The translations under genes and the position numbers were made by a program. Below are positions 5,618 through 60,082 of a stretch of DNA of 64,000 nt, in pieces. A model generated the notes under the pieces. It was not told the DNA's origin and did no database searches. It saw only the letters and a list, made by a program, of their open reading frames with translations. The stretch comes from a virus, in the IMG/VR virus record IMGVR_UViG_3300033076_000783, one strand, 5' to 3'. Positions within the stretch are counted from its first letter, which is position 1. Each line of letters begins with the position of its first letter.

Positions 5618-6237
5618 GAACAGTTTGGGTGTTTGGTGATTCATTTTCTGTCGATTTTGACAAGAATCCAATCAAAAATTTCTATGATTACGGACAATAT
5701 AAGGGATATTACCCAAAAACATGGGGTAAATTATTATCTGAACACTTAAATTGTGACTACAAGAACTTTGCAAGGGGTGGATGGGACAATTATTCCATTC
5801 TTCAGACATTTTGTGATAATATTCACAATTTTGGTCCCGATGATTTGGTTTTTGTGGGGTGGTCACCAGAGGAGAGAATAAGACTTGTGGGTGGTCATGG
5901 TGGATGGGTTCCATTTAATTCAGCTCCACCGAATCCTGTATATGAGATTGACCCCAATATTGTTGCCACTTTATTGGTTTCAAGAACGGAAAAGACCTCT
6001 CACGGTTATCAGGCACATAAGATTGTTCGTGAGGAGGTATATTCATGGGAGAATATGATAAGACATTCACTAAAAGATAGATTTGTCCATATATGGAGAT
6101 GGTATAGTGAAGATATATTACCGAGACACTATGATACCATTCAAAAAGAAACGAACGGACAGATTAATGACACACACTGGTCGGAGAAGGGACATCTTCA
6201 ATACGTCACAGATTTAATCTCTGAATTAAACCTTTAA
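5614..6237 (+). CDS. SGNH/GDSL-like hydrolase family protein (paralog 2)
   Basis: VWVFGDSFSVDFD N-terminal block and the KTWGKLLSEHL...ARGGWDN block are shared with the ORFs at 35282 and 36052. Confidence 0.45.
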   Translation: MRTVWVFGDSFSVDFDKNPIKNFYDYGQYKGYYPKTWGKLLSEHLNCDYKNFARGGWDNYSILQTFCDNIHNFGPDDLVFVGWSPEERIRLVGGHGGWVPFNSAPPNPVYEIDPNIVATLLVSRTEKTSHGYQAHKIVREEVYSWENMIRHSLKDRFVHIWRWYSEDILPRHYDTIQKETNGQINDTHWSEKGHLQYVTDLISELNL

Positions 6238-6390
6238 ATTTTCCCGACCCGGCCCCGGCGGGGGTAACATTCATCAACTCCGGCGTCGGAGGTTTATAAA
6301 CAAAGAAGGGATGAGGTAGCGAATCCCCATCCCCAACGGGATATGTAACTAGTCCCGGTCCTAAGCAGGGTCTTCAAACCCTGGTTCTCT
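6238..6390. terminator. GC-rich hairpin cluster between convergent genes (bidirectional terminators / structured element)
   Basis: Hairpins CTCCGgcgtCGGAG-gttt, GGGATG-14nt-CATCCC and CAGGGTttgaagACCCTG in an otherwise AT-rich genome. Confidence 0.4.
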
Positions 6391-8880: not shown

Positions 8881-8959
8881 TCCTACTACATTTTCCCCCA
8901 CGAAAGTCCCTTACGAAAGTGAGGGATTTTTTTTTGACCACAGACCATCTCCGTCCCGT

Positions 8960-9074
8960 CTACAATAGTGAACGGCTCCGATAGACCATCAGGACGAGAA
9001 ATCCTTCAGGGAATAATGAACGGCCCCGAAGATTGTAATACACCATCGAGCCATTCTTATTTCCCACGGGGACG
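8960..9074. repeat. Complex imperfect palindrome (intergenic repeat family, copy A)
   Basis: AATAGTGAACGGCTCC, GAATAATGAACGGCCCC and CGAGCCATTCTTATTT half-sites plus complementary outer arms CCGTCCCGTC / CACGGGGACG. Confidence 0.7.
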
Positions 9075-9471: not shown

Positions 9472-9585
9472 AGAAAATAATGAAGGGCTCGGAGCCGTTC
9501 TTTATTACCATCCGGATCAGCTTGGACCGGGTTCATTTATGAGCCCTTCATTATTACCATCCGGATCAGCTTGGACGAGGGTGGA
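9472..9585. repeat. Intergenic palindrome family, compound copy B with 21-bp direct repeat
   Basis: AATAATGAAGGGCTCGGAGCCGTTCTTTATT and TTCATTTATGAGCCCTTCATTATT, each followed by ACCATCCGGATCAGCTTGGAC. Confidence 0.75.
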
Positions 9586-10410: not shown

Positions 10411-10458
10411 TTTTTCGGATAGACCACCCATCGACGGTTATGGACCGGGTAATAATGA

Positions 10459-10630
10459 ACGGCCCATTCGAACTCATTACTAATCAATCTGATGTGAATC
10501 CATTTATAACATTAGTGTGAATTCTATCTGCACAGATCCTGTAAATTAATGAACGGCTCGTATTACACAGAGGTGGGATTGTATTACATGGCCGTACATT
10601 ATTCATTCCCGTCGGAACAGGTGAGATGGT
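10459..10630. repeat. Intergenic palindrome family, copies C1/C2
   Basis: ATAATGAACGGCCCATTCGAACTCATTAC and AATTAATGAACGGCTC-gtattacacagaggtgggattgtattaca-TGGCCGTACATTATTC. Confidence 0.7.
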
Positions 10631-11109: not shown

Positions 11110-11175
11110 CGCAGATCATGTGAATTAATGAACGGCCCAAGCCATACATTATTCATCAGGGACCAGCTGGATCAC
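11110..11175. repeat. Intergenic palindrome family, copy D
   Basis: GCGCAGATCATGTGAATTAATGAACGGCCCAAGCCATACATTATTCAT with outer arm CTGGATCAC. Confidence 0.7.
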
Positions 11176-11825: not shown

Positions 11826-11874
11826 GTGAATAATGAATGGCTTGTATTACACCAACGAGCCGTACATTATTTTA
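11826..11874. repeat. Intergenic palindrome family, copy E (GTATTAC loop insert)
   Basis: GTGAATAATGAATGGCTtgtattacaccaacGAGCCGTACATTATTTT. Confidence 0.7.
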
Positions 11875-12287: not shown

Positions 12288-12348
12288 GTTTTCGCGCAGA
12301 TCATGTGAATTATGAATGGCTCGAGCCGTTCTTTATTTTCTGGATCTG
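12288..12348. repeat. Intergenic palindrome family, copy F (near-perfect)
   Basis: CGCGCAGATCATGTGAATTATGAATGGCTCGAGCCGTTCTTTATTTTCTGGATCTGCACCG; core and outer arms are both self-complementary. Confidence 0.8.
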
Positions 12349-13099: not shown

Positions 13100-13185
13100 A
13101 GATTTCCTGCCGAAGGTTCAGGGTGAATTATGAATGGCTCGAGCCGTACATTATTCATGATGGGATCGGCAGAATCAGGATGGAA
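13100..13185. repeat. Intergenic palindrome family, copy G
   Basis: CCACAGATTTCCTGCCGAAGG...GTGAATTATGAATGGCTCGAGCCGTACATTATTCATG...GGGATCGGCAGAA. Confidence 0.75.
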
Positions 13186-14377: not shown

Positions 14378-14410
14378 GTCCGAACCTTCCATGTGCATCT
14401 GAGATTATTC

Positions 14411-14458
14411 AAATTATGAACGGCTCAAAGCCATACATTATTCATTCCCGTCGGAACA
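14411..14458. repeat. Intergenic palindrome family, copy H
   Basis: CAAATTATGAACGGCTCAAAGCCATACATTATTCATTCCCGTCGGAAC; the 3' flank is identical to copy C2. Confidence 0.7.
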
Positions 14459-14536
14459 GAAATCACCGTAAAAAAATTGTCACAAAAAAATAAAATAATA
14501 TTTGGTGGAATGAATTTTATTTTATAATTTTATGTC

Positions 14537-14839
14537 ATGAACAAAACAACTAAACAAGAACTTTGGATGAGGGAATCAACCGAGTTCACAATGTCAGACG
14601 GTTCGACAGTAAATGGATACCGTATCAACTTTGTTAGATTTTTAGAAGAGGGTGAAACCTTGGAGGACATCGACGAAGAATTAGAGTTCGACGAAGTAGT
14701 AGGTGGTAGTGTGGTACCAACTAATGTAGATGAGGACTACAACGAGATTAACGATGATGAGATTGATGATGAGGATATTGATATGTTCAATCCGACATTC
14801 TACATTGGAGGTTTACACGGAGTACCAATAGAGGAATAG
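14537..14839 (+). CDS. hypothetical highly acidic protein
   Basis: 100 aa with D/E-rich tail (DEDYNEINDDEIDDEDIDMF). Confidence 0.45.
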   Translation: MNKTTKQELWMRESTEFTMSDGSTVNGYRINFVRFLEEGETLEDIDEELEFDEVVGGSVVPTNVDEDYNEINDDEIDDEDIDMFNPTFYIGGLHGVPIEE

Positions 14840-14925
14840 GTTTAGAACAAAGGTTGTCTTAAAAGGGTGGGAGTTTCTCTCACCTTTTTTTTATGTCTGA
14901 AGATACCGTTAGATCAACAACAGGT

Positions 14926-14966
14926 GGAATTATGAACGGCCCAAGCCACTCATTATCCTACCTGTG
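14926..14966. repeat. Intergenic palindrome family, copy I
   Basis: GGAATTATGAACGGCCCAAGCCACTCATTATCC. Confidence 0.65.
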
Positions 14967-15194
14967 ATCAGGATCCGGGCTTGAAAAAAAAATTAAATAA
15001 TATTTGGTGAAATGAAAATTGTTTTATAATATTGTATCAGAAAATAACTTTAAAGTTGTTTGACACCAAAACCCTTGAAAACACACCAAAATAAAGGGAA
15101 TAAAAAAAAATTAAAAAAATATTGAAAAAAATTTGGTGGAAAGAAAAAAACATTATATCTTTGTATCAACAAAACGGAATTATTATTAACAACC

Positions 15195-15228: not shown

Positions 15229-15975
15229 ATGAACAAGATAATGTCAGGTAAAAAAGTCGGAGAAATTTTTGAAACAAAAGATTATTCAATCTTCAAGTTT
15301 CGTAATGACAATCGTGTGATTGATAACAATCACGTTAAGAAACTTTCTCGTAAGATGAAAGAGAAAGGTTGGTTATCAACTTCAATCGTTACCTTAAATG
15401 GTAGTGGTGATGTAATTGACGGACAACACAGAGTTAAAGCCGCTATGGCGGTAGGTTGTCCAATTCGTTACAAAGTTACTCGTGGAGCGGGTACTGATGA
15501 AATGACCGAAATGAATACTTTACAAAAAAATTGGAGTCCATTTGACCACCTACATAAATTTGTGGAGAGAGGAAATTCAAACTACATTACATTTGATAAA
15601 TTCGTTAAGGATTATCCAATGTTTAAGTACACTGAAATTTCAATGTTGTTGAATAACAATATGACCACAATTAAGAGAGATAGTTTTGAAAGTGGTAACT
15701 ATGTTGTTAAGAATGACAAAGTAGGTCGTGAGTGGGCGAATTACATATTAGAGTTGAAACCATACTTTGAGAAGTATTACAATAAGTCAATCTTCGTGAG
15801 AGGTTTCATCAAAGTAATATCTTCTAAACCCGAGTTCGTGTTTGAGGAGTTCTTACACAAAGTGAAGTTAAGACCAAATATGTTAGTACCTTGTGGAACG
15901 GTGGAACAATATGTTCAAATGATTGAGGACATTTACAACTATCGTAGAGGTGAAAAGGTTAATTTGAGATTTTAG
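15229..15975 (+). CDS. DGQHR-domain protein (DndB-like, ParB/Srx nuclease superfamily)
   Basis: VIDGQHRVKAAMAVG motif; 248 aa. Confidence 0.5.
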   Translation: MNKIMSGKKVGEIFETKDYSIFKFRNDNRVIDNNHVKKLSRKMKEKGWLSTSIVTLNGSGDVIDGQHRVKAAMAVGCPIRYKVTRGAGTDEMTEMNTLQKNWSPFDHLHKFVERGNSNYITFDKFVKDYPMFKYTEISMLLNNNMTTIKRDSFESGNYVVKNDKVGREWANYILELKPYFEKYYNKSIFVRGFIKVISSKPEFVFEEFLHKVKLRPNMLVPCGTVEQYVQMIEDIYNYRRGEKVNLRF

Positions 15976-16068: not shown

Positions 16069-16093
16069 AATAATGAATGGCCCACGGTTTTGT
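16069..16093. repeat. Intergenic palindrome family, half-copy J
   Basis: GAATAATGAATGGCCCACGG only. Confidence 0.5.
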
Positions 16094-16552: not shown

Positions 16553-16565
16553 ATGTCCACAGATT

Positions 16566-16640
16566 TTCCTGCAGATCATGCTGCACATTATGAATGGCTC
16601 GAGGCCGTTCATTATTCCCTGGCAGCTGCAGATCAGATCA
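16566..16640. repeat. Intergenic palindrome family, copy K (perfect 30-bp core)
   Basis: CATTATGAATGGCTCGAGGCCGTTCATTATT flanked by CTGCAGATCA on both sides. Confidence 0.8.
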
Positions 16641-16732
16641 CGGAGAAAAAATAATTTATATTTCTTGAAAATAATTTTGGATTATATAAAATATTGTTTT
16701 ATCTTTGTAGTGTAACAAAACAATAATACATT

Positions 16733-17667: not shown

Positions 17668-17715
17668 CTGAATTATGAACGGCTCAACACGTATTACGAG
17701 CCACTCATTATCCTG
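17668..17715. repeat. Intergenic palindrome family, copy L (GTATTAC loop insert)
   Basis: CTGAATTATGAACGGCTCaacacgtattacGAGCCACTCATTATCCTG. Confidence 0.7.
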
Positions 17716-17773
17716 ACTGGTCCATGCCTGGATCAGGGCTAAAAAAATAATTTGAAAAAAAAGTAAATAAAAT

Positions 17774-17804
17774 TTGGTGGAATGATTTTTTTGTTATATC
17801 TTTG
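17774..17804 (+). promoter_or_regulatory. Bacteroidetes-type promoter
   Basis: TTTGGTGG ...19 nt... TATCTTTG. Confidence 0.55.
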
Positions 17805-17825: not shown

Positions 17826-18083
17826 ATGATTAAGAAAACAAAACACACTCTGTTGTTAGGTGAGGGAGTTCACCAACACACACTCTATGGTAAGTTCGCA
17901 ATCGGTGATGGTACTGATTTTGCTGAACTTGAAGTTACGGAAGAAAGTCTATTAAAACACGAACACCCTAACGGAAATTTTGGTGAACACCAAACATTGA
18001 AGATTGAGAAGGGTGATTGGGTTATGGGTAGACAAGTTGAGTTCAACCCAATGGATAGTAAGATAACAAGAGTTTGGGACTAA
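17826..18083 (+). CDS. hypothetical protein
   Basis: Start adjusted to MIKKTKH, downstream of the promoter. Confidence 0.45.
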   Translation: MIKKTKHTLLLGEGVHQHTLYGKFAIGDGTDFAELEVTEESLLKHEHPNGNFGEHQTLKIEKGDWVMGRQVEFNPMDSKITRVWD

Positions 18084-19156: not shown

Positions 19157-19846
19157 ATGAAAATCATAATCAATAATACTGAATTTGAATACAACATTGG
19201 TTGTAAAATTATTAAAGCGAGAGATGGTGAAGATTGTCCTAAATGGTTTAATCAACCAGATATTTGGGACGACATTGAACCGATAACTTTCAAAGACATC
19301 GCAACACAGATTACTAATCTTGAACAAAGAAGAATTGCGATAAACGCATTGGGTTTAGAAAACTTGGTGAAGGAAGTTAATCCAAAAATGATTGGCTCAG
19401 AAACAATCAGTAAGACCACTACGTTTGTTACACCAGAAGGTGAGTTGGTTACACATAACTTTAACGACACTTATAATTTATTTCAAGTTAGTGCCGAATC
19501 ACTTGGATTACAGAATAGTTGGAATAACACGAACTACTACTACATTCAATGTAAAGACACATCAACGGATAGAGAGTATTTGATTTGGGTAGATGCGTTT
19601 GAAGTGTATAGAACTAATGATGAAAATGTGAGATGGCGTTCAAGTTCTGAAAACTATGGTGAGAAGATAAATCCTATTCAGGCGATTGCTTGGACTTTCC
19701 AAACGACTATTGAGAAAGGTGGTATTGAAAAGATTGTGAGGCAAGGTGATTGTATTCTACTTAAAAAGAATAGTACCGCTAAAATCGGAAGTCAAAGACA
19801 CCTTACTGAAAAAGAGTATAGAGAGTTATTGGTATTAGAAAGTTAA
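19157..19846 (+). CDS. hypothetical protein
   Basis: 229-aa ORF. Confidence 0.5.
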   Translation: MKIIINNTEFEYNIGCKIIKARDGEDCPKWFNQPDIWDDIEPITFKDIATQITNLEQRRIAINALGLENLVKEVNPKMIGSETISKTTTFVTPEGELVTHNFNDTYNLFQVSAESLGLQNSWNNTNYYYIQCKDTSTDREYLIWVDAFEVYRTNDENVRWRSSSENYGEKINPIQAIAWTFQTTIEKGGIEKIVRQGDCILLKKNSTAKIGSQRHLTEKEYRELLVLES

Positions 19847-19869
19847 TAGTGTGTTTTGTTCCCCTAAAG

Positions 19870-19896
19870 CCCTATCAGAAATGATAGGGTTTTTTT
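19870..19896 (+). terminator. Intrinsic terminator
   Basis: CCCTATCagaaatGATAGGG+TTTTTTT. Confidence 0.6.
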
Positions 19897-19928
19897 ATGT
19901 CCACAGATTTCCCGTCTTCTAGAATCTG

Positions 19929-20075
19929 AAATATGAATGGCTCAGGCCGTTCATTTTCACACAGCATGATCTGCGCATGATCTGCTAAAAATTGCGCAGA
20001 TCTTCGCGCTGATCACAGGGACGATTATGACTGGCTCGAGGCCGTTCATTATGTTCCGACGCCGGCAGATCAGAT
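19929..20075. repeat. Intergenic palindrome family, compound copy M (two cores around a GATCTGCGCA...TGCGCAGATC palindrome)
   Basis: CTGAAATATGAATGGCTCAGGCCGTTCATTTTC, then CATGATCTGCGCATGATCTGC...GCGCAGATCTTCGCGCTGATCAC, then GATTATGACTGGCTCGAGGCCGTTCATTATG. Confidence 0.75.
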
Positions 20076-20168
20076 CATGAAAAAATATTTTAAAAAAAGT
20101 TTAAAAAATATTTGGTAAAATGATATAAGTGTTATATCTTTGTATCGAACAAATAAAATAACACTATT

Positions 20169-20927
20169 ATGATTTACACAAACAAAGCAACCGCAAAAAG
20201 ATTAACAGGTATTAACTACTTAGGATCCGTTAATCTAACGACCAAACATCAGAAGGCGTACAAGTACGATGAGTTAACCTACAGTTTGTACCTGGCACCT
20301 GCAAAAATGAGTGGCTACGAAGTTTGTCCCATGAGAACAAAAGAATGTACAAAGTTATGTTTGAATGAATCGGGGATGAACACCATGAACATGAACGGTG
20401 ACAAAATTAATCAGTCACGTATAAAGAAAACTAAATTGTTTTTCGAACACCGTGAATTCTTTGTCAATTGGTTAATCGATGAAATTTATTCAGCTAAACT
20501 TAAGGCAGAAAAATTAGGATACCAATTCAGTGTTCGTCTGAATAATACATCAGATATTCCCCCGACATTATTTAGTGTGAACTATAAAGGAGAACAAAGA
20601 AACATCCTTGAAATATTTCCAATGGTTCAATTCTACGATTACACAAAAGTGTATAACAGAATCGAGTTAACAAAGAAGTATAAAAACTACGATTTAACAT
20701 TTAGTTACAGTGGCGAGAACTTAGACCATTGCCACCAAGCATTGAATAACAATGTGAGAGTTGCCGTTGTATTCAAGAAACTACCTACAGAGTTTTGGGG
20801 TCGTAAAGTTATCGATGGTGATGCATATGACATGAGATACAAAGATGATAAGGATGTTATTGTAGGTTTGAAGTTCAAACGTGTGAGAAACAAATTAGCA
20901 AGTACAAGTAAGTTTGTAATACAGTAA
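20169..20927 (+). CDS. hypothetical protein
   Basis: 252-aa ORF after a TTTGG...TATCTTTG promoter. Confidence 0.5.
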   Translation: MIYTNKATAKRLTGINYLGSVNLTTKHQKAYKYDELTYSLYLAPAKMSGYEVCPMRTKECTKLCLNESGMNTMNMNGDKINQSRIKKTKLFFEHREFFVNWLIDEIYSAKLKAEKLGYQFSVRLNNTSDIPPTLFSVNYKGEQRNILEIFPMVQFYDYTKVYNRIELTKKYKNYDLTFSYSGENLDHCHQALNNNVRVAVVFKKLPTEFWGRKVIDGDAYDMRYKDDKDVIVGLKFKRVRNKLASTSKFVIQ

Positions 20928-20928
20928 G

Positions 20929-21000
20929 ATCACGGGACGGTCACGAATATGACCGGCTCATGTATTACGGGCCGGTCATTTTTAACAGTGTGATCAGATC
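20929..21000. repeat. Intergenic palindrome family, variant copy N (ATGACCGGC core)
   Basis: GATCACGGGACGGTCACGAATATGACCGGCTCatgtattacGGGCCGGTCATTTTTAACAGTGTGATC; a near-perfect 70-bp palindrome. Confidence 0.7.
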
Positions 21001-22944: not shown

Positions 22945-23032
22945 TCTACCTGTCGTGATTATGACTGGCCTTAAAAAAAATATCTCAAAAAAAATTTGGT
23001 ATATTCCAAAAAATCATTAAATTTACATCGTT

Positions 23033-24134: not shown

Positions 24135-24344
24135 ATGACCGGCCCATTAACCTTCACAGATCCTATGAAAAAATTATTAAAGAACCTCGAGTACTATTGG
24201 GACTACGTCGTAGTATATCTCATGTGTAATCCTCATTATCTCCACAGGTACCATCTATGGATGTACAAGAAGTGGGGTGAAAGATACTGCACCAAGGAAG
24301 ATCTTATGAATCACATCGAGTCTGATCAGGATCCTGAATTATGA
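24135..24344 (+). CDS. hypothetical small protein whose start and stop codons lie inside palindrome-repeat cores
   Basis: ATG is within ATTATGACCGGCCC (24128-24151). Stop TGA is within AATTATGAGTGGCCC (24336-). Confidence 0.3.
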   Translation: MTGPLTFTDPMKKLLKNLEYYWDYVVVYLMCNPHYLHRYHLWMYKKWGERYCTKEDLMNHIESDQDPEL

Positions 24345-24404
24345 GTGGCCCACACTCACCTTCGCAGATCACCTGAACCGATTATGACCGGCCCATTACT
24401 AACA
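24336..24404. repeat. Intergenic palindrome family, two tandem half-copies
   Basis: TGAATTATGAGTGGCCCAC...CGATTATGACCGGCCCATTACTAAC. Confidence 0.55.
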
Positions 24405-24842: not shown

Positions 24843-24870
24843 CAATTATGAACGGCCTGTGTATTACACC
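24843..24870. repeat. Intergenic palindrome family, half-copy with GTATTAC
   Basis: TTCAATTATGAACGGCCtgtgtattacacc. Confidence 0.5.
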
Positions 24871-25142: not shown

Positions 25143-25929
25143 TATACCGTTGTTTTCCACAACATTAAGGTCCGGACCAGTAAGGGGGTTCGGACCTTTT
25201 TTGTTTAACCCTTACGTGTATTACTTAAACAAACCTAATCATTAAAGACCGGCTTCGGGCCAGTCTTATTTGTATTACGAATAGTTGTTACAACAACTAA
25301 ATTATGACCGGCCCATTTACTCTATTACGGGCCTCCCCTATCGGGTCGGCCCTTCATCCCGTATTACATCCCATATGTATAACATCCTATTGCGGGGGAC
25401 CTTCGGTCCCCCTTCATCCCGTATGTATGACACCGTATATGTAAGACATAAATAGGATTATTCTAAGGGACCTTAAAAAAATCCCTAAGGGTTTTTCTAA
25501 AAACCATAGTACTATTTCTAGAACACCCTGAAGGGCCGAACGAAGTGAGGCCCGTATAATGAAATAACTAATATATATGTATATAATATAAATGTATTAC
25601 ATGTATACTGTATGACATTATAATGATATAATCTGGATATTTTTTAAAACTAAGTCGTGATTCAGACAAGGGACAATCCCCCACTAATTAACACTTTCTC
25701 CCACTTTGTTTCAAAAATATGGCTGGTGTATATTAGAACGGGAATTTTGACTTGATCTGACAAAAAGTCTATATATAAAATGATCACGATAAAATATGTC
25801 AAAAAGACATACTAATTTTATGGTGTTTTTAGGGTTAAAAACGGGAATAAATTAGGGGTGTTTTTGTGGGTAATCTGGTACCCAATAGAGTATACGGGCC
25901 TCCCTTCGGTCGGCCCTTCAGGGGAGAAT
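25143..25929. other. 790-bp noncoding island between convergent gene blocks, with UUCG-loop GC hairpins and iterated CCTTCATCCCGTAT / GTATTAC motifs
   Basis: GGGGGACCttcgGTCCCCC (perfect hairpin). GGGCCTCCCttcggTCGGCCC and GGGCCTCCCctatcGGGTCGGCCC. CCCTTCATCCCGTAT twice. AT-rich TGTAT/ATACA mirror repeats. No ORF of 60 aa or more. Confidence 0.6.
25169..25202 (+). terminator. Intrinsic terminator
   Basis: GGTCCGgaccagtaagggggttCGGACC+TTTTTT. Confidence 0.55.
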
Positions 25930-26277
25930 TTAGGATAGATTATCTATTATAATAGGTTCATCACAGTGGGGACAATCCTTTAGTACAAGTAAATTATTCA
26001 TATGAAAACTCCACTTCTCTACTTGTGGTTTTTCCATGCTGGAGAGTTTTCTGAACCCATCCTGATTATCTACTTCACCATATATGTCATAGTACTTTCC
26101 CTTATACCTTGTGATGATATGATTCCCATTTGTGTATGGTATACAACCTTTATACATCTTACTTAAAAGGAGGTGAAACTTATAACAACCTCCTTTTGTA
26201 TAGATGTGATGAATATACCTATCAGTATTCCTTAGTTCATCTATGAAGTTTAGAATATTCATATTAATCCTTCCCAA
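25930..26277 (-). CDS. hypothetical protein
   Basis: 115-aa ORF, last gene of the long minus-strand block. Confidence 0.45.
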   Translation of the reverse strand: MGRINMNILNFIDELRNTDRYIHHIYTKGGCYKFHLLLSKMYKGCIPYTNGNHIITRYKGKYYDIYGEVDNQDGFRKLSSMEKPQVEKWSFHMNNLLVLKDCPHCDEPIIIDNLS

Positions 26278-55335: not shown

Positions 55336-55686
55336 TTATCTAAAATAAATATGTTTTGGGAAATAGTCACCAAAAACATACTTAGTTACATCACATAACC
55401 ACATCTCCAAATCATATCTTATACCCTTATAATTTTTACAAACGTACCAAGCACCTTCACCTAACTCCCATCCCTCTAATCTACCAAACTTGGTAAAAAT
55501 TAAACAATCCGAACCTTCAAATGGTGTTGAGGATAATGTTAAATAAAAATCATTTTCACCTTGTGCAATTATATCACAAAAAGTATCTGCACCTGAAACC
55601 ATTTGTAACTCAGATTTAGTAAATCCTGCACCTGGTAAATCTATAAACCATCCTAAATCATCTTTATAAAATCTATAGATTCTCAT
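55336..55686 (-). CDS. hypothetical protein
   Basis: 116-aa ORF. Confidence 0.4.
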   Translation of the reverse strand: MRIYRFYKDDLGWFIDLPGAGFTKSELQMVSGADTFCDIIAQGENDFYLTLSSTPFEGSDCLIFTKFGRLEGWELGEGAWYVCKNYKGIRYDLEMWLCDVTKYVFGDYFPKHIYFR

Positions 55687-56369
55687 TTTCTAAATTCTTT
55701 GAATATTTTTATGAATGGTTTTTCATATTTTTCAATCTCTTTAATATCTAAACCATTATAAAGACCGGTTGATAGAAATGCTTGTGCCTCATCATCTAAA
55801 ATCTTTCTATCATTTACATAACCCATTTTGATGAGTTTCTTGTCTATTTTATCCATAGTCTTTTTAGGGATTAAAGATAATTGATACGTCATTCTTAATT
55901 TATATTCTTTATTTGTGTAATATAAACCATGAGCAATCTCGTGATTCATAGTACCTTTATCTTTAGAACTTGCACCAATCAAATACCAATCATGTCTTGT
56001 CCCATTATTTTTATTTTGAGCATCTAACGCACAATGAAAATAAATGTCGTTCATGATTGTATCATATTCAGTTTCTTTATAAAACTTATCATGAGCATGT
56101 TCTAAAACATCAGATGGGATATTATAACCAGACCAATCTTCAGGATATGTGAATGTCTTTTTTTTCCAAAAATCTTTATAGAACCTCATATATTCCATCC
56201 ATGTGAAATATTTTCCTCTGAATTGTTTATATGGTGATTCATAAAATTCTTGGTAACGACAAAACAACATTGCTCTGTCGTAGTTGTCATCAACCTCAAC
56301 ACAATAGATAAATGGTTTTATTTCTTTTACTATTCCTTTAACTAAAGGATGTTTGATTTTCATAGGCAA
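55683..56369 (-). CDS. hypothetical protein with HExxH motif
   Basis: NHEIAHGLYY; possible metallopeptidase. Confidence 0.3.
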   Translation of the reverse strand: MPMKIKHPLVKGIVKEIKPFIYCVEVDDNYDRAMLFCRYQEFYESPYKQFRGKYFTWMEYMRFYKDFWKKKTFTYPEDWSGYNIPSDVLEHAHDKFYKETEYDTIMNDIYFHCALDAQNKNNGTRHDWYLIGASSKDKGTMNHEIAHGLYYTNKEYKLRMTYQLSLIPKKTMDKIDKKLIKMGYVNDRKILDDEAQAFLSTGLYNGLDIKEIEKYEKPFIKIFKEFRK

Positions 56370-56974
56370 CTTTTTAAAACTTCATAACAAAGTTCATCAG
56401 GTATTTTACTTCTTTCATATGGATTTGATCTACCTTGTGTTCCTGTTCTACTTCCTCTTGGTGCTGCAACGTGACACGGGTCACCATTCTTACACATCTT
56501 ACGAGGAACCCACACATCACTGTTTGTCCATATATCAGTTGGTTTCATTCTGTCATCACCATATTGACAATATGTGACAGTATTCCGTTTCAAATCTTTT
56601 ACCACATCCATTTTTCTAAGGACACCTCTTGGGTTCTCCATAAACCAATACTTTGGTTTGTAGTAATCAATAATCTCCAACGTCTTCTTAACCAATTCAA
56701 TACCTAATCTCGCAGTGTCGGTTTTAGGTACGTATGCACCTTTTCCCCCACCCCAATGATGACCGATTGCAGCAACACTAAAACCAGTACATGGTGGTGA
56801 TGCCCAAATTACATCAGGAATAAATGGTACCTTAGAGTAATCAAATTCTAAAATATTAACAACATAGTTAATACCTTCGAAATCGTTGATATCCGATGAG
56901 AACACCTCCATTCCCAACGATTCGGCTTGTTTACCGATGGATCTACTTCCGGCAAATAACTCTAAAACTTTCAT
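56360..56974 (-). CDS. short atypical C5-cytosine methyltransferase-like protein
   Basis: Motif I LELFAGSRS. Motif IV ASPPCTGFS (PCT instead of PCQ). Motif VI-like FMENPRG. 204 aa; no obvious target-recognition domain. Confidence 0.45.
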   Translation of the reverse strand: MKVLELFAGSRSIGKQAESLGMEVFSSDINDFEGINYVVNILEFDYSKVPFIPDVIWASPPCTGFSVAAIGHHWGGGKGAYVPKTDTARLGIELVKKTLEIIDYYKPKYWFMENPRGVLRKMDVVKDLKRNTVTYCQYGDDRMKPTDIWTNSDVWVPRKMCKNGDPCHVAAPRGSRTGTQGRSNPYERSKIPDELCYEVLKSCL

Positions 56975-59032: not shown

Positions 59033-59992
59033 TTATTTATCCTTCAATAAACTTTTAATAACGTGTGATCCTACAGGAATTGACCATCCATTTCCACACA
59101 TTTTTTCTCTTGCGGTTTTTGTAATCCCATCAACATGAGTGTGACCAGGTTTTAAACCCATTAACATTTCACCTTGTTCTATTGTTAATTTATGGATTTT
59201 ATTTCTTTTATCAACATAATATCCGGTACCATGACCCTGTCCATTAGTAACATTAGAACCAAATTTTGTAACAACACAATTTGATTTGTTATCTTTTCTA
59301 ACGGTAAGAGGGTAACTATAAAAGTCTTGTTTGTTCATTTTTCTTCCTCTGAAACCCGCACCGTTTACTGCGTTTTCGATTACATCACTTAGAGATATTC
59401 CTTTATCTTTAGGAATGGTGATTGTTGGTCTACTACCCCAAAACAATCTAACTCTACTTTGTGCACTTAATAATGCTGCATCTATTTTGACAGGTTTAAC
59501 ACCTAATGCCGAACTAAGTATGTTCTCCCATTTTTTAGTCATTTTAACATTCTCAACCACAAAGTCTGCAACAGGTAATCCCTTTTTCTTTTGTAATTTG
59601 GTGATTCCTTTGATAAGTCTATCAACTTCCCAAAACAAATATGATTGTCCTTCAAATTCAAAACCCTCTGCCTTTAATTTTTCATATTGTTCTAAAGTGT
59701 AGACCTCAACATTTGTGGTTGTTGACATTCCCTTTCTTTTACCCGCCATTGAAAATGATTGACATGGTGAACCCGCACATATTAGATTCACATCTAAAAA
59801 ATCTTTTGGGTTTAAGTTTCTAACATCACCGACGAAAACCGCCTTAGGGAAATTCTTTTTAAGAACTTTAAGTGCGTTAGGGTCAATTTCACTAATATAA
59901 CTTTTAGTGATTTTGAATCCCGCCGATTTTACGGACAATTCTGCTCCGCCATAACCAGCGAATAAGTCAAGAAGTACGATTTCTTTTTTCAT
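59033..59992 (-). CDS. DNA (cytosine-5)-methyltransferase
   Basis: Motif I LLDLFAGYGG. Motif IV ICAGSPCQSFSMAG. Motif VI FVVENV. C-terminal GNGWSIPV. Start set to MKKEIV, downstream of a TTTG...TAGATTTG promoter. Confidence 0.8.
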   Translation of the reverse strand: MKKEIVLLDLFAGYGGAELSVKSAGFKITKSYISEIDPNALKVLKKNFPKAVFVGDVRNLNPKDFLDVNLICAGSPCQSFSMAGKRKGMSTTTNVEVYTLEQYEKLKAEGFEFEGQSYLFWEVDRLIKGITKLQKKKGLPVADFVVENVKMTKKWENILSSALGVKPVKIDAALLSAQSRVRLFWGSRPTITIPKDKGISLSDVIENAVNGAGFRGRKMNKQDFYSYPLTVRKDNKSNCVVTKFGSNVTNGQGHGTGYYVDKRNKIHKLTIEQGEMLMGLKPGHTHVDGITKTAREKMCGNGWSIPVGSHVIKSLLKDK

Positions 59993-60082
59993 GTTGTTAT
60001 AAGTTTTGTTTGTACGATACAAATCTACGAATATTTTTTAATATACAAAAATATTTTTAAAAAAATTATAACTAACTGATTA

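Follow-up and report, generated by a model that had tools for sequence, protein, structure and literature searches.

Small ORFan genes in the hyperplastic region of T4-type phages are separated by promoter-early stem-loops (PeSLs), each of which is a repeated unit of an intrinsic terminator and a strong early promoter of the host type (Arbiol et al., 2010, PMC2839356; Comeau et al., 2014, PMC4122927). Plasmid RK2 has 12 palindromic OB sites for KorB, a global repressor and ParB-CTPase, which works as a CTP-dependent clamp and can silence distant promoters (PMC11790492). Here, we describe a repeated element that can be compared with both. It lies in a 64,000-nt stretch of the IMG/VR virus record IMGVR_UViG_3300033076_000783, referred to as the window throughout, and is part of a boundary module of approximately 200 bp, which is present in almost every intergenic region of an array of small plus-strand genes and carries an imperfect 30-bp dyad; the copy at 19929-20075 is compound. 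Two further systems serve as background. The homologous regions (hrs) of baculoviruses are dispersed imperfect palindromes of about 30 bp, which are bound by IE1, enhance early promoters and act as recombination hot spots. In integron attC arrays, among them the species-specific ones of the VCR (Vibrio cholerae repeat) type, co-oriented small cassettes alternate with imperfect inverted repeats, whose outer cores are conserved and whose centre varies.

The window comes from an uncultivated giant (jumbo) phage with Bacteroidota-type promoters. In giant phages, small early genes of unknown function form long arrays. Many of these genes probably act against host defences, and the regulation and fast turnover of such arrays are poorly understood outside the T4 group. 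We consider it somewhat probable that the boundary modules recombine by homology and that the arms of their dyads are, at the same time, KorB-like multi-copy operator sites.

The boundary module and its compound copies

Sixteen copies of the imperfect dyad and nine solo arms were found, all of them between 8.9 and 25.4 kb on the plus strand (coordinates in Table 1). Chance is excluded: a strict core pattern gave three matches, with 0.01 expected, and a looser search led to the 16 dyads, all of which fall into one strand block. The module has a constant order. It begins with an intrinsic terminator from one of two repeated families and a short post-terminator motif, which is either CCACAGATTTCC or CCAAGAA. 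There follow a block of 60-120 nt, which is richer in GC, contains GATC motifs and has the dyad in its middle, an A-tract UP element, and a promoter. The latter has the form TTTGG-N20-TAnnTTTG, which we take to be the type recognized by the primary sigma factor of Bacteroidota. Each dyad consists of two inverted arms of 12-13 bp, AATTATGAAYGGC and GCCRTWCATTATT (ATGAAYGGC and GCCRTWCAT in the window), usually spaced by 4-5 bp and sometimes by 13-36 bp with GTATTAC in between. Module copies are direct repeats; the dyad has one orientation relative to the genes and a fixed place within the module.

At 19929-20075, the initial annotation had described two full cores around a GATC-rich palindrome, and this layout was confirmed. 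Four GATC sites (19968, 19979, 19999 and 20011) and a perfect 10-nt inverted repeat (GATCTGCGCA at 19968, TGCGCAGATC at 19993) are located between dyad 1 and dyad 2. In this joint, a short A-run connects the right flank of dyad 1 (GATCTGC, twice) with the left flank of dyad 2 (GCGCAGATC...GATCAC), and both GATCTGC and GCGCAGATC recur in single modules. Thus, the palindrome exists because the right flank of module 1 (GATCTGC) abuts the left flank of module 2 (GCGCAGATC). The stretch with dyad 2 is 74% identical, in register, to another module of the window (16560-16648, family D12). The copy was also compared with L086, a relative of the intermediate clade introduced below. Positions 19848-19916, including the homologous terminator at 19870-19896, match the L086 terminator upstream of its GP88-family gene, whereas 19999-20158 (dyad 2, right flank, UP element, promoter and 5′ leader) is identical at 135 of 156 positions (87%) to the L086 module downstream of GP88. 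Homology to L086 switches modules, then, between 19916 and 19999. On the evidence of its sequence, 19929-20075 is shown to be a joint, i.e., a tandem mosaic, of two different modules. In the orthologous region of L086, a full dyad is followed by 75 nt with two GATC sites and a solo arm; since this region is compound as well, tandem sites at the position upstream of GP88 must be old.

For another compound copy, at 9472-9585, two cores had been described, each followed by the same 21-mer. The duplication of the 21-mer is real, as ACCATCCGGATCAGCTTGGAC occurs at 9507 and 9556 within a full repeat of 26 nt (9502-9527 and 9551-9576). The second core turned out to be only a second right arm, GAGCCCTTCAT (9541-9551), which is the perfect complement of the lone left arm (9480-9490). 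In L001, a relative with 98% identity, precisely 9502-9550 is missing. The missing 49-bp unit lies between the 26-nt direct repeats, and this comparison shows a 49-bp duplication or deletion via slippage or unequal crossover.

Copy K (16566-16640) had been read as a perfect 30-bp core within a direct repeat resembling a target-site duplication. The direct repeat is indeed present on both sides and the core equals the exact family consensus, but the palindrome is imperfect, with one T·G position. A target-site duplication is not borne out, as the flanking CTGCAGATCA is the module's own motif: GCAGATCA, recurrent at cores, was counted 7 times in the window and CAGATC 15 times, nearly all adjoining cores.

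Relatives, lineage-specific arms and recombination

Relatives were collected by exact-protein look-ups and scans of IMG/VR, and are designated by L numbers. They comprise near-identical contigs (L001-L009 and L052-L061), an intermediate clade (L086-L088) and about a dozen more distant clades with the module design, represented by IMG/VR contigs of 180-334 kb, i.e., of jumbo-phage size. INPHARED yielded zero DNA matches and only protein matches of at most 26% identity; consequently, the phage is without a cultured relative. All relatives found keep the module design, and the arm sequences differ by lineage: ATGAAYGGC in the window and L012, ATGACCGGC (left) and ATGAATGGC (right) in L086, ATGTTTGGC and ATGATTGGC in L017 and L032, TTGGTTGGC and TTGTTTGGC in L013 and L021, TTGATTGGC in L028, and TTGTCTGGC and TTGTGTGGC in L031 and L034. 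The consensus across these lineages is TG-NN-Y-GGC. Unrelated arms are found in two close relatives which have the module design, too (L030, TTTACTGGA; L033, GATTTTGTCTAGTTTT). Among 185,579 bacterial and archaeal species genomes of GTDB, the core pattern never forms a repeated family. There were 24 lone matches, and the four which were checked, both Bacteroidota ones included, showed neither a family nor similarity to the window. An origin from the host genome as a miniature inverted-repeat transposable element (MITE) or a repetitive extragenic palindrome (REP) was rejected on account of this absence.

The differences between close relatives show unequal recombination or slippage between the direct-repeat modules. 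L057 is without the cassette 14532-14985 (one gene, its terminator and a dyad), and the crossover is located in AAATAATATTTGGTG, which is common to two promoters; in L055, different cassettes follow GP88. Five cassette indels distinguish L021 from L026 (92% identical). Four of them could be mapped; in each, the switch of source takes place at or inside the left arm, over about 8-13 nt, despite 30-50 nt of homology to one side. Between L015 and L014 (100% identical), a 931-nt cassette difference is found between 81-nt repeats, and the crossover, in flank plus arm, can be placed only within 40 nt. L017 and L032 differ by two events with the crossover in the A-tract (UP element). L087 and L086 differ by a 46-nt unit of one arm plus GATC spacer between GAATTATGACYGGC repeats; the two-arm form of this unit is present in the window at 24341-24392. 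The order of cassettes is permuted between clades, with all genes remaining on one strand. Breakpoints between the window and L012 could not be mapped, as the intergenic DNA is too diverged.

Recombination between modules accounts for the compound copies. The initial annotation had suggested that the elements duplicate, insert or recombine, and had named presence/absence polymorphism in related genomes as a test. Such polymorphism is seen, both for units and for whole cassettes (e.g., L001 and L057). Duplication and recombination are upheld by the 49-bp unit missing from L001, the 46-nt unit of L087/L086, the presence or absence of cassettes, their permuted order and the mosaic make-up of 19929-20075; insertion in the manner of a MITE is not, as discussed below.

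Further observations concern single copies and single relatives. The ParB-like protein of L031 (8367-9113) is 79% identical to that of the window (15229-15975) and the neighbouring DUF932 proteins are 62% identical, so the early array is mosaic at the gene level, too. At 24341-24349, the arm GAATTATGA forms the last two codons and the stop codon (…EL-stop) of the gene 24135-24344, and GAATTATGA likewise ends the corresponding gene in L012 (19200-19215); cassette ends and arms can thus coincide to the nucleotide. L061 (97% identical) has a 63-nt deletion at its position 200 (window 17735-17797), between ATC microhomologies, which leaves the promoter of gene 17826-18083 without its UP and -33 elements and with only a remnant of its -7 box. 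In the same copy, GTATTAC is changed to GTATTAT. Runs of GATCA/CAGAT pentamers next to cores vary in copy number, or are replaced, between relatives of 97-98% identity, which points to slippage or gene conversion. Apparent deletions in L052 were rejected, since they are scaffolding runs of 100 N (1450-1549 and 6214-6313; ENA scaffold). These N runs start and stop exactly at ATTATG/ATGAACGGC repeats. As the repeat family breaks short-read assemblies, apparent deletions beside repeats need care.

How the arms may be read

Arms of one copy do not fit each other better than they fit the arms of other copies. In the window, own and other right arms gave 6.75 and 6.83 matches out of 10, respectively (p = 0.69), and copy-specific compensation between arms was significant in 0 of 10 genomes. 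Own pairs complement each other worse than non-own pairs in L017, L031 and L034, because left and right arms are different variants there. Several clades have such a systematic difference between left and right arms, and the types of L086 give two adjacent mismatches in a 9-bp stem. A few copies (20949, 25245 and 9480/9541) had seemed compensated, but there was no excess over all copies and the ten genomes. A long hairpin including the flanks, which had seemed complementary by eye, was rejected as well: the flanks lack a copy-specific relation (own versus other flanks, p = 0.60), and their apparent complementarity reflects shared motifs. T·G and C·A at arm position 6 are found at a ratio of 6:6 on the plus strand, and wobble pairs without strand bias argue against an RNA element. 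Fold energies of the dyads as single-stranded DNA range from -5 to -10 kcal/mol, with some copies at -9 to -10 (z = -4 to -5). In sister clades, the distance of solo arms from the downstream -33 element is either 7-9 nt (8 cases) or 18-20 nt (14 cases); 310 unique promoters were compared, and distances of 10-17 nt do not occur among them. This phasing is clear, though two inherited UP-element lengths could also yield it. A helical phasing of the dyads themselves relative to -33 (52, 61-66 and 73-74 nt in the window) was dropped, as pooling of 11 genomes resulted in a broad mode at 61-66. Given that there is no compensation, no flank complementarity and no strand bias, that the folds are modest and that solo arms are frequent, we infer that a protein recognizes the arms as half-sites on duplex DNA, and that they are not a selected hairpin.

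Our best guess for this protein is the candidate encoded by the early gene 15229-15975, which has a predicted ParB/KorB fold. The protein matches PHROG 12305 (“ParB-like partition protein”, 8e-26) and contains a GxxRxxA box (DGQHRVKAA, residues 64-72) with an invariant DGQHR. Using its AF2 model (mean pLDDT 86.7), Foldseek detected ParB-CDP/CTP, RK2 KorB, pNOB8 ParB and Spo0J over 200-240 columns with probability 1.0. The TM-scores are low (0.3-0.4), which is consistent with a different domain arrangement. Furthermore, wherever TGnnYGGC arms reach 12-25 per 10 kb (26 loci), a ParB-like protein is encoded, whereas the arm density of all 12 loci without such a gene stays at background (0-4.4 per 10 kb). 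Two of these 12 are L030 and L033; judged by DUF932 identity, they are as close as L028 and L034 are. A promoter scan found arms 50-110 nt upstream of 12 of the 14 early-class plus-strand promoters and of 0 minus-strand promoters. Arms of most clades (TTGTTTGGC) appear to resemble a parS half-site, TGTTTCAC. In the mechanism we propose, the early promoter class would be under a KorB-like global regulator, with the dyads as its multi-copy operator; this control would probably amount to early shut-off or feedback. The repetition needed for such regulation would also turn the array into a recombination ground on which cassettes are shuffled, as with the PeSLs of T4-type phages.

Several findings weigh against operator sites bound by this protein. 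Searches of Pfam, NCBIfam and PDB sequences did not recognize the 15229-15975 protein, and the co-occurrence of ParB-like genes and arms is confounded by phylogeny and by the 20-kb reach of the loci. L031 and L012 have ParB-like proteins with nearly the same putative recognition region but different arms (TTGTCTGGC and ATGAAYGGC), so the protein could read at most the shared TG..YGGC; a simple co-variation of recognition region and arm sequence is not supported by this pair. Inter-arm spacers from 3 to more than 50 nt and common solo arms are atypical of dimer sites of the ParB type. Measured from the right arm, the distance to -33 has its mode at 61-66 nt, and its phasing is not strict. Arms at 24135, 24341 and 24384 mark gene boundaries without a promoter, a location more in keeping with a boundary or recombination site than with an operator. 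Finally, by our tally of ten mapped indel junctions, about six are on arms, three in the UP element or promoter, and one is unplaced; the arms could, therefore, themselves be recombination sites.

Taken further, this last point leads to arms as core sites of an integron/attC-like, site-specific cassette recombination, in which a phage recombinase cuts the inner ...TGGC end. We regard this as unlikely. A circular cassette with a full dyad would insert at a solo arm, resulting in the order dyad, promoter, ORF, terminator, solo arm, and the extra cassette of L026 has the predicted layout of a dyad with a solo arm at the other end. Arms mark cassette boundaries even where promoter or terminator is missing; they are inverted, with a variable centre and a left/right difference, uniform per genome and divergent between genomes; they bound the 46-nt unit of L087/L086; the four L021/L026 indels switch source at the left arm despite longer homology; and cassette order is shuffled between clades. 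However, three events cross in the A-tract or promoter (L057 and two in L017/L032) and the L015/L014 crossover is unplaced within 40 nt. Arm plus A-run is often the longest identical stretch, so that homology alone can explain junctions at arms; the compared relatives are 8% diverged, and the parental repeats are known only inexactly. Searches of the 64-kb window found no integrase, transposase or HUH gene, and the missing compensation gives no sign of folded-strand recognition. A wider proposal is rather unlikely in our estimation: across a large group of uncultivated jumbo Bacteroidota phages, a phage-encoded enzyme of an integron-like system would insert, excise and shuffle small early (anti-host) cassettes at ...TGGC arms, and GTATKAC between the arms would belong to this machinery. 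In a weaker form of it, the arms would be hr-like dual elements, namely a ParB/KorB-type operator that became a preferred crossover point, too. It is extremely unlikely, on the other hand, that we are dealing with a MITE- or REP-like mobile element leaving target-site duplications, even if short inverted arms (12-13 nt) in multiple intergenic copies, direct repeats beside some of them and unit-sized indels between close relatives recall such elements. The “duplications” are recurrent module motifs and not copy-specific target sequence. Every copy has the same position in the module and one orientation relative to the genes, all are at cassette boundaries of one array with no copy in the 38-kb minus-strand region, and the indels are bounded by a repeated arm or flank, as slippage or unequal crossover predicts. 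Together with the absence of a transposase from the window and of a repeated family from the GTDB genomes, this leaves the MITE-like insertion of the initial annotation without support.

The motifs near and between the arms have likewise to be considered. GTATTAC or GTATGAC is found in the inter-arm spacer in every related clade, even with unrelated arms (L030, L033 and L055, where the hairpin is AACTGC-aaatGTATTACc-GCAGTT). GTATTAC resembles NAGTATTAC, the loop sequence at which Rep nicks the DNA of circoviruses and nanoviruses; GTATTAC/GTATGAC also resembles TATATTAC, the early promoter motif of phiKZ. On the plus strand, GTATTAC is present 20 times (about 5 expected), GTATTAC/GTATGAC often takes the form TGTATKACA, and GTATKAC is found within perfect stems of at least 6-7 bp 2.3-3.5 times more often than random positions. 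These facts, as well as the copies with the best fold energies, would suit single-stranded stem-loops functioning as HUH origin or nick site (GTATT/AC), hairpin promoter or RNA processing/stability element, an explanation we hold to be highly improbable. Only 6 of the 16 window dyads have the motif in their spacer, with weak or mismatched stems, and most GTATKAC is outside stems, many within genes or antisense. GTATKAC spans 4203-25610 of the window on both strands, and either orientation is absent from 26000-64000, the minus-strand block. The lack of copy-specific compensation and of a wobble strand bias, the systematic arm mismatches of several clades and the common solo arms speak against stem-loops, too. 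Rfam 15 gave nothing relevant at the gathering score or at E up to 1, the window is without a detected HUH gene, and the dyads are mostly untranscribed owing to their position after terminators and before promoters. Still another explanation sees the functional heart of the module in the GATC clusters. Dam-type methylation sensing upstream of promoters is known from Mu mom, pap and agn43, and a sensor of this kind could tell injected from replicated DNA; we judge this to be very unlikely. It is true that GATC is depleted in the window (86 sites, 222 expected, 0.39) yet concentrated in the modules and near dyads: between 9.4 and 21 kb, 25 of 26 sites are in the intergenic module, roughly 31% of the sequence, and within 45 nt of dyads GATC is 4-50 times denser than elsewhere in eight genomes. 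(GATCA)n runs, moreover, vary between relatives by slippage. In contrast, L021 and L028 have zero GATC in 20.8 kb each (54-67 expected) and keep modules, arms and promoters, with GAGTCACGG in the L021 module where the window has GATCACGG. GATC is, therefore, not essential to the module design. Its positions are not fixed relative to the arms, and no adenine methyltransferase was found among the window genes, only C5 methylases. The zero GATC of L021 and L028, compared with the partial depletion elsewhere, suggests hosts with different GATC-directed restriction.

Surroundings of the array and comparison with known systems

The window is AT-rich, with about 33% GC. Approximately 30 small genes, all on the plus strand, cover 8.3-25.4 kb; most are without a known family, and the others belong to DUF932, DUF6915, GP88, DUF6891, L5 gp82-like, bPH_2 and ParB-like families. 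The remaining window is a minus-strand block coding for an HNH endonuclease, C5 methylases, an SPFH protein, a peptidoglycan-binding protein and a tail-protein fragment. One of the C5-cytosine methyltransferase genes (55683-56974) appears as two ORFs, 56360-56974 (N-terminal part) and 55683-56369. A tRNA scan of the window found nothing relevant. Minus-strand promoters differ in flavour (T-rich upstream, TTTGGWATAT), and the second promoter class listed in Table 1 presumably is a temporal class other than the early array. Where the gene strand switches, approximately 790 bp (25143-25930) are non-coding. This region contains six plus-strand GTATKAC within 400 bp, several short GC-rich hairpins (e.g., GGGGGACCTTCGGTCCCCC and GGGCCTCCCTTCGGTCGGCCC), CCCTTCATCCCGTAT repeated twice, and a very AT-rich stretch at 25560-25640. 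Rfam had no above-threshold match in it; the region could be a replication origin or a non-coding RNA locus.

Table 1. Positions of dyads, arms and associated features (window coordinates unless a relative is named).
Feature	Position	Strand	Remarks
Solo left arms	8968-8976, 16073-16081, 22961-22969, 24135-24143, 24341-24349, 24384-24392, 24848-24856, 25304-25312	+	
Dyad	9016-9058	+	25-nt spacer carrying GTAATAC (GTATTAC on the minus strand)
Compound copy	9472-9585	+	left arm 9480-9488, right arm 1 9494-9502, 26-nt repeat, right arm 2 9543-9551, 26-nt repeat
Solo left arm	10455-10463	+	94 nt upstream of dyad 10549-10599
Dyad	10549-10599	+	33-nt spacer carrying two GTATTAC
Dyad	11128-11149	+	4-nt spacer
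Dyad	11833-11867	+	17-nt spacer with GTATTAC
Dyad	12312-12333	+	4-nt spacer
Dyad	13130-13151	+	4-nt spacer
Dyad	14416-14438	+	5-nt spacer; left flank replaced by (GATCA)3 in L057
Dyad	14932-14953	+	4-nt spacer; upstream of the ParB-like gene, within the cassette 14532-14985 missing from L057
Early gene, ParB/KorB-fold protein, candidate arm binder	15229-15975	+	PHROG, AlphaFold model, Foldseek
Copy K	16566-16640	+	arms 16590-16598 and 16604-16612, flanked by CTGCAGATCA at 16569 and 16626
Dyad	17675-17708	+	16-nt spacer with GTATTAC
Intrinsic terminator after gene 19157-19846	19870-19896	+	stem CCCTATC/GATAGGG plus T-run; repeated family (D5)
Post-terminator motif TCCACAGATTTCC	19900-19912	+	recurs after terminators at 8936, 13095, 16556, 19900
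Dyad 1 of compound copy 19929-20075	19929-19958	+	arms 19933-19941 and 19946-19954, 4-nt spacer; single-stranded DNA fold -9.7 kcal/mol
GATC-rich joint of two modules	19965-20016	+	
Dyad 2 of compound copy 19929-20075	20023-20053	+	arms 20027-20035 and 20041-20049, 5-nt spacer
Right flank with tandem GATC, GGCAGATCAGATCATG	20062-20078	+	
A-tract UP element, -33 TTTGG (20111), -7 TATCTTTG (20135-20142)	20079-20142	+	promoter of GP88-family gene 20169-20927 (Pfam)
Dyad	20949-20979	+	13-nt spacer with GTATTAC; ATGACCGGC in both arms
Dyad AAGACCGGC ttcgg GCCAGTCTT	25245-25267	+	flanking GTATTAC at 25218 and 25272
GATCA/CAGAT run sites	14391-14410, 16628-16640, 20065-20077; L057 825-845; L087 9733		
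Second promoter class	27314, 34099, 35265, 38189, 49623, 60049 (-); 22995 (+)	- and +	T-rich upstream, TTTGGWATATTC/ATATC...TAnnTTTG; without A-tract, without dyad
C5-cytosine methyltransferase genes, two	55683-56974, 59033-60022	-	

The array shows a PeSL-like cassette architecture in an unrelated, uncultivated lineage of Bacteroidota jumbo phages, with a component which PeSLs lack: a lineage-specific inverted-repeat site co-occurring perfectly with an early protein of predicted ParB/KorB fold. Should the pairing of site and protein be true, this would be a phage example of KorB-style multi-site control over a whole gene array, and motif and candidate protein together would provide a handle for the early regulon in metagenomic phage genomes. 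Should the arms be true recombination sites, they would constitute a new kind of viral cassette-exchange system.

Compared with known systems, the dyads share with MITEs, REPs and bacterial interspersed mosaic elements (BIMEs) that they are short, intergenic, multicopy inverted repeats; they differ by the lack of target-site duplications and of a transposase or REP-associated tyrosine transposase (RAYT) in the window, by their fixed place in the module and by their absence from bacterial genomes. Like integron attC sites, they are imperfect inverted repeats at cassette ends, uniform per genome and divergent between genomes. Unlike in integrons, every cassette has a promoter and a terminator to itself, the mapped crossovers do not seem to be restricted to a single position, and signs of folded-strand recognition are missing; in the 64-kb window, neither an integrase nor attI or Pc was detected. 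The hrs of baculoviruses offer an analogy only; virus, host domain and protein family all differ. KorB/OB of RK2 is alike in several ways: the gene of a ParB-fold protein lies among those which the protein would control, a replicon has about a dozen palindromic sites or more, many of them tens of bp upstream of promoters, and the predicted structure of the 15229-15975 protein matches KorB and ParB. Here, in contrast, spacers are variable, solo half-sites occur, the sites do not resemble OB (TTTAGCSGCTAAA) in sequence, a KorA or TrbA partner was not identified, and the replicon is a phage and not a plasmid. With the PeSLs, finally, the module has in common the repeated terminator and the strong host-type early promoter between small ORFan genes of a hyperplastic region, indels and replacements between close relatives, crossovers inside the repeats and the shuffling of cassettes. 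PeSLs belong to T4-type myoviruses with sigma70-type Pearly promoters, whereas our module is from an unrelated phage lineage with Bacteroidota -33/-7 promoters and has an extra GC-richer block with a lineage-specific 30-bp dyad, GATC and, often, GTATTAC. The module is a PeSL-like boundary module with an additional, probable ParB/KorB-type operator, in a novel lineage of jumbo phages.

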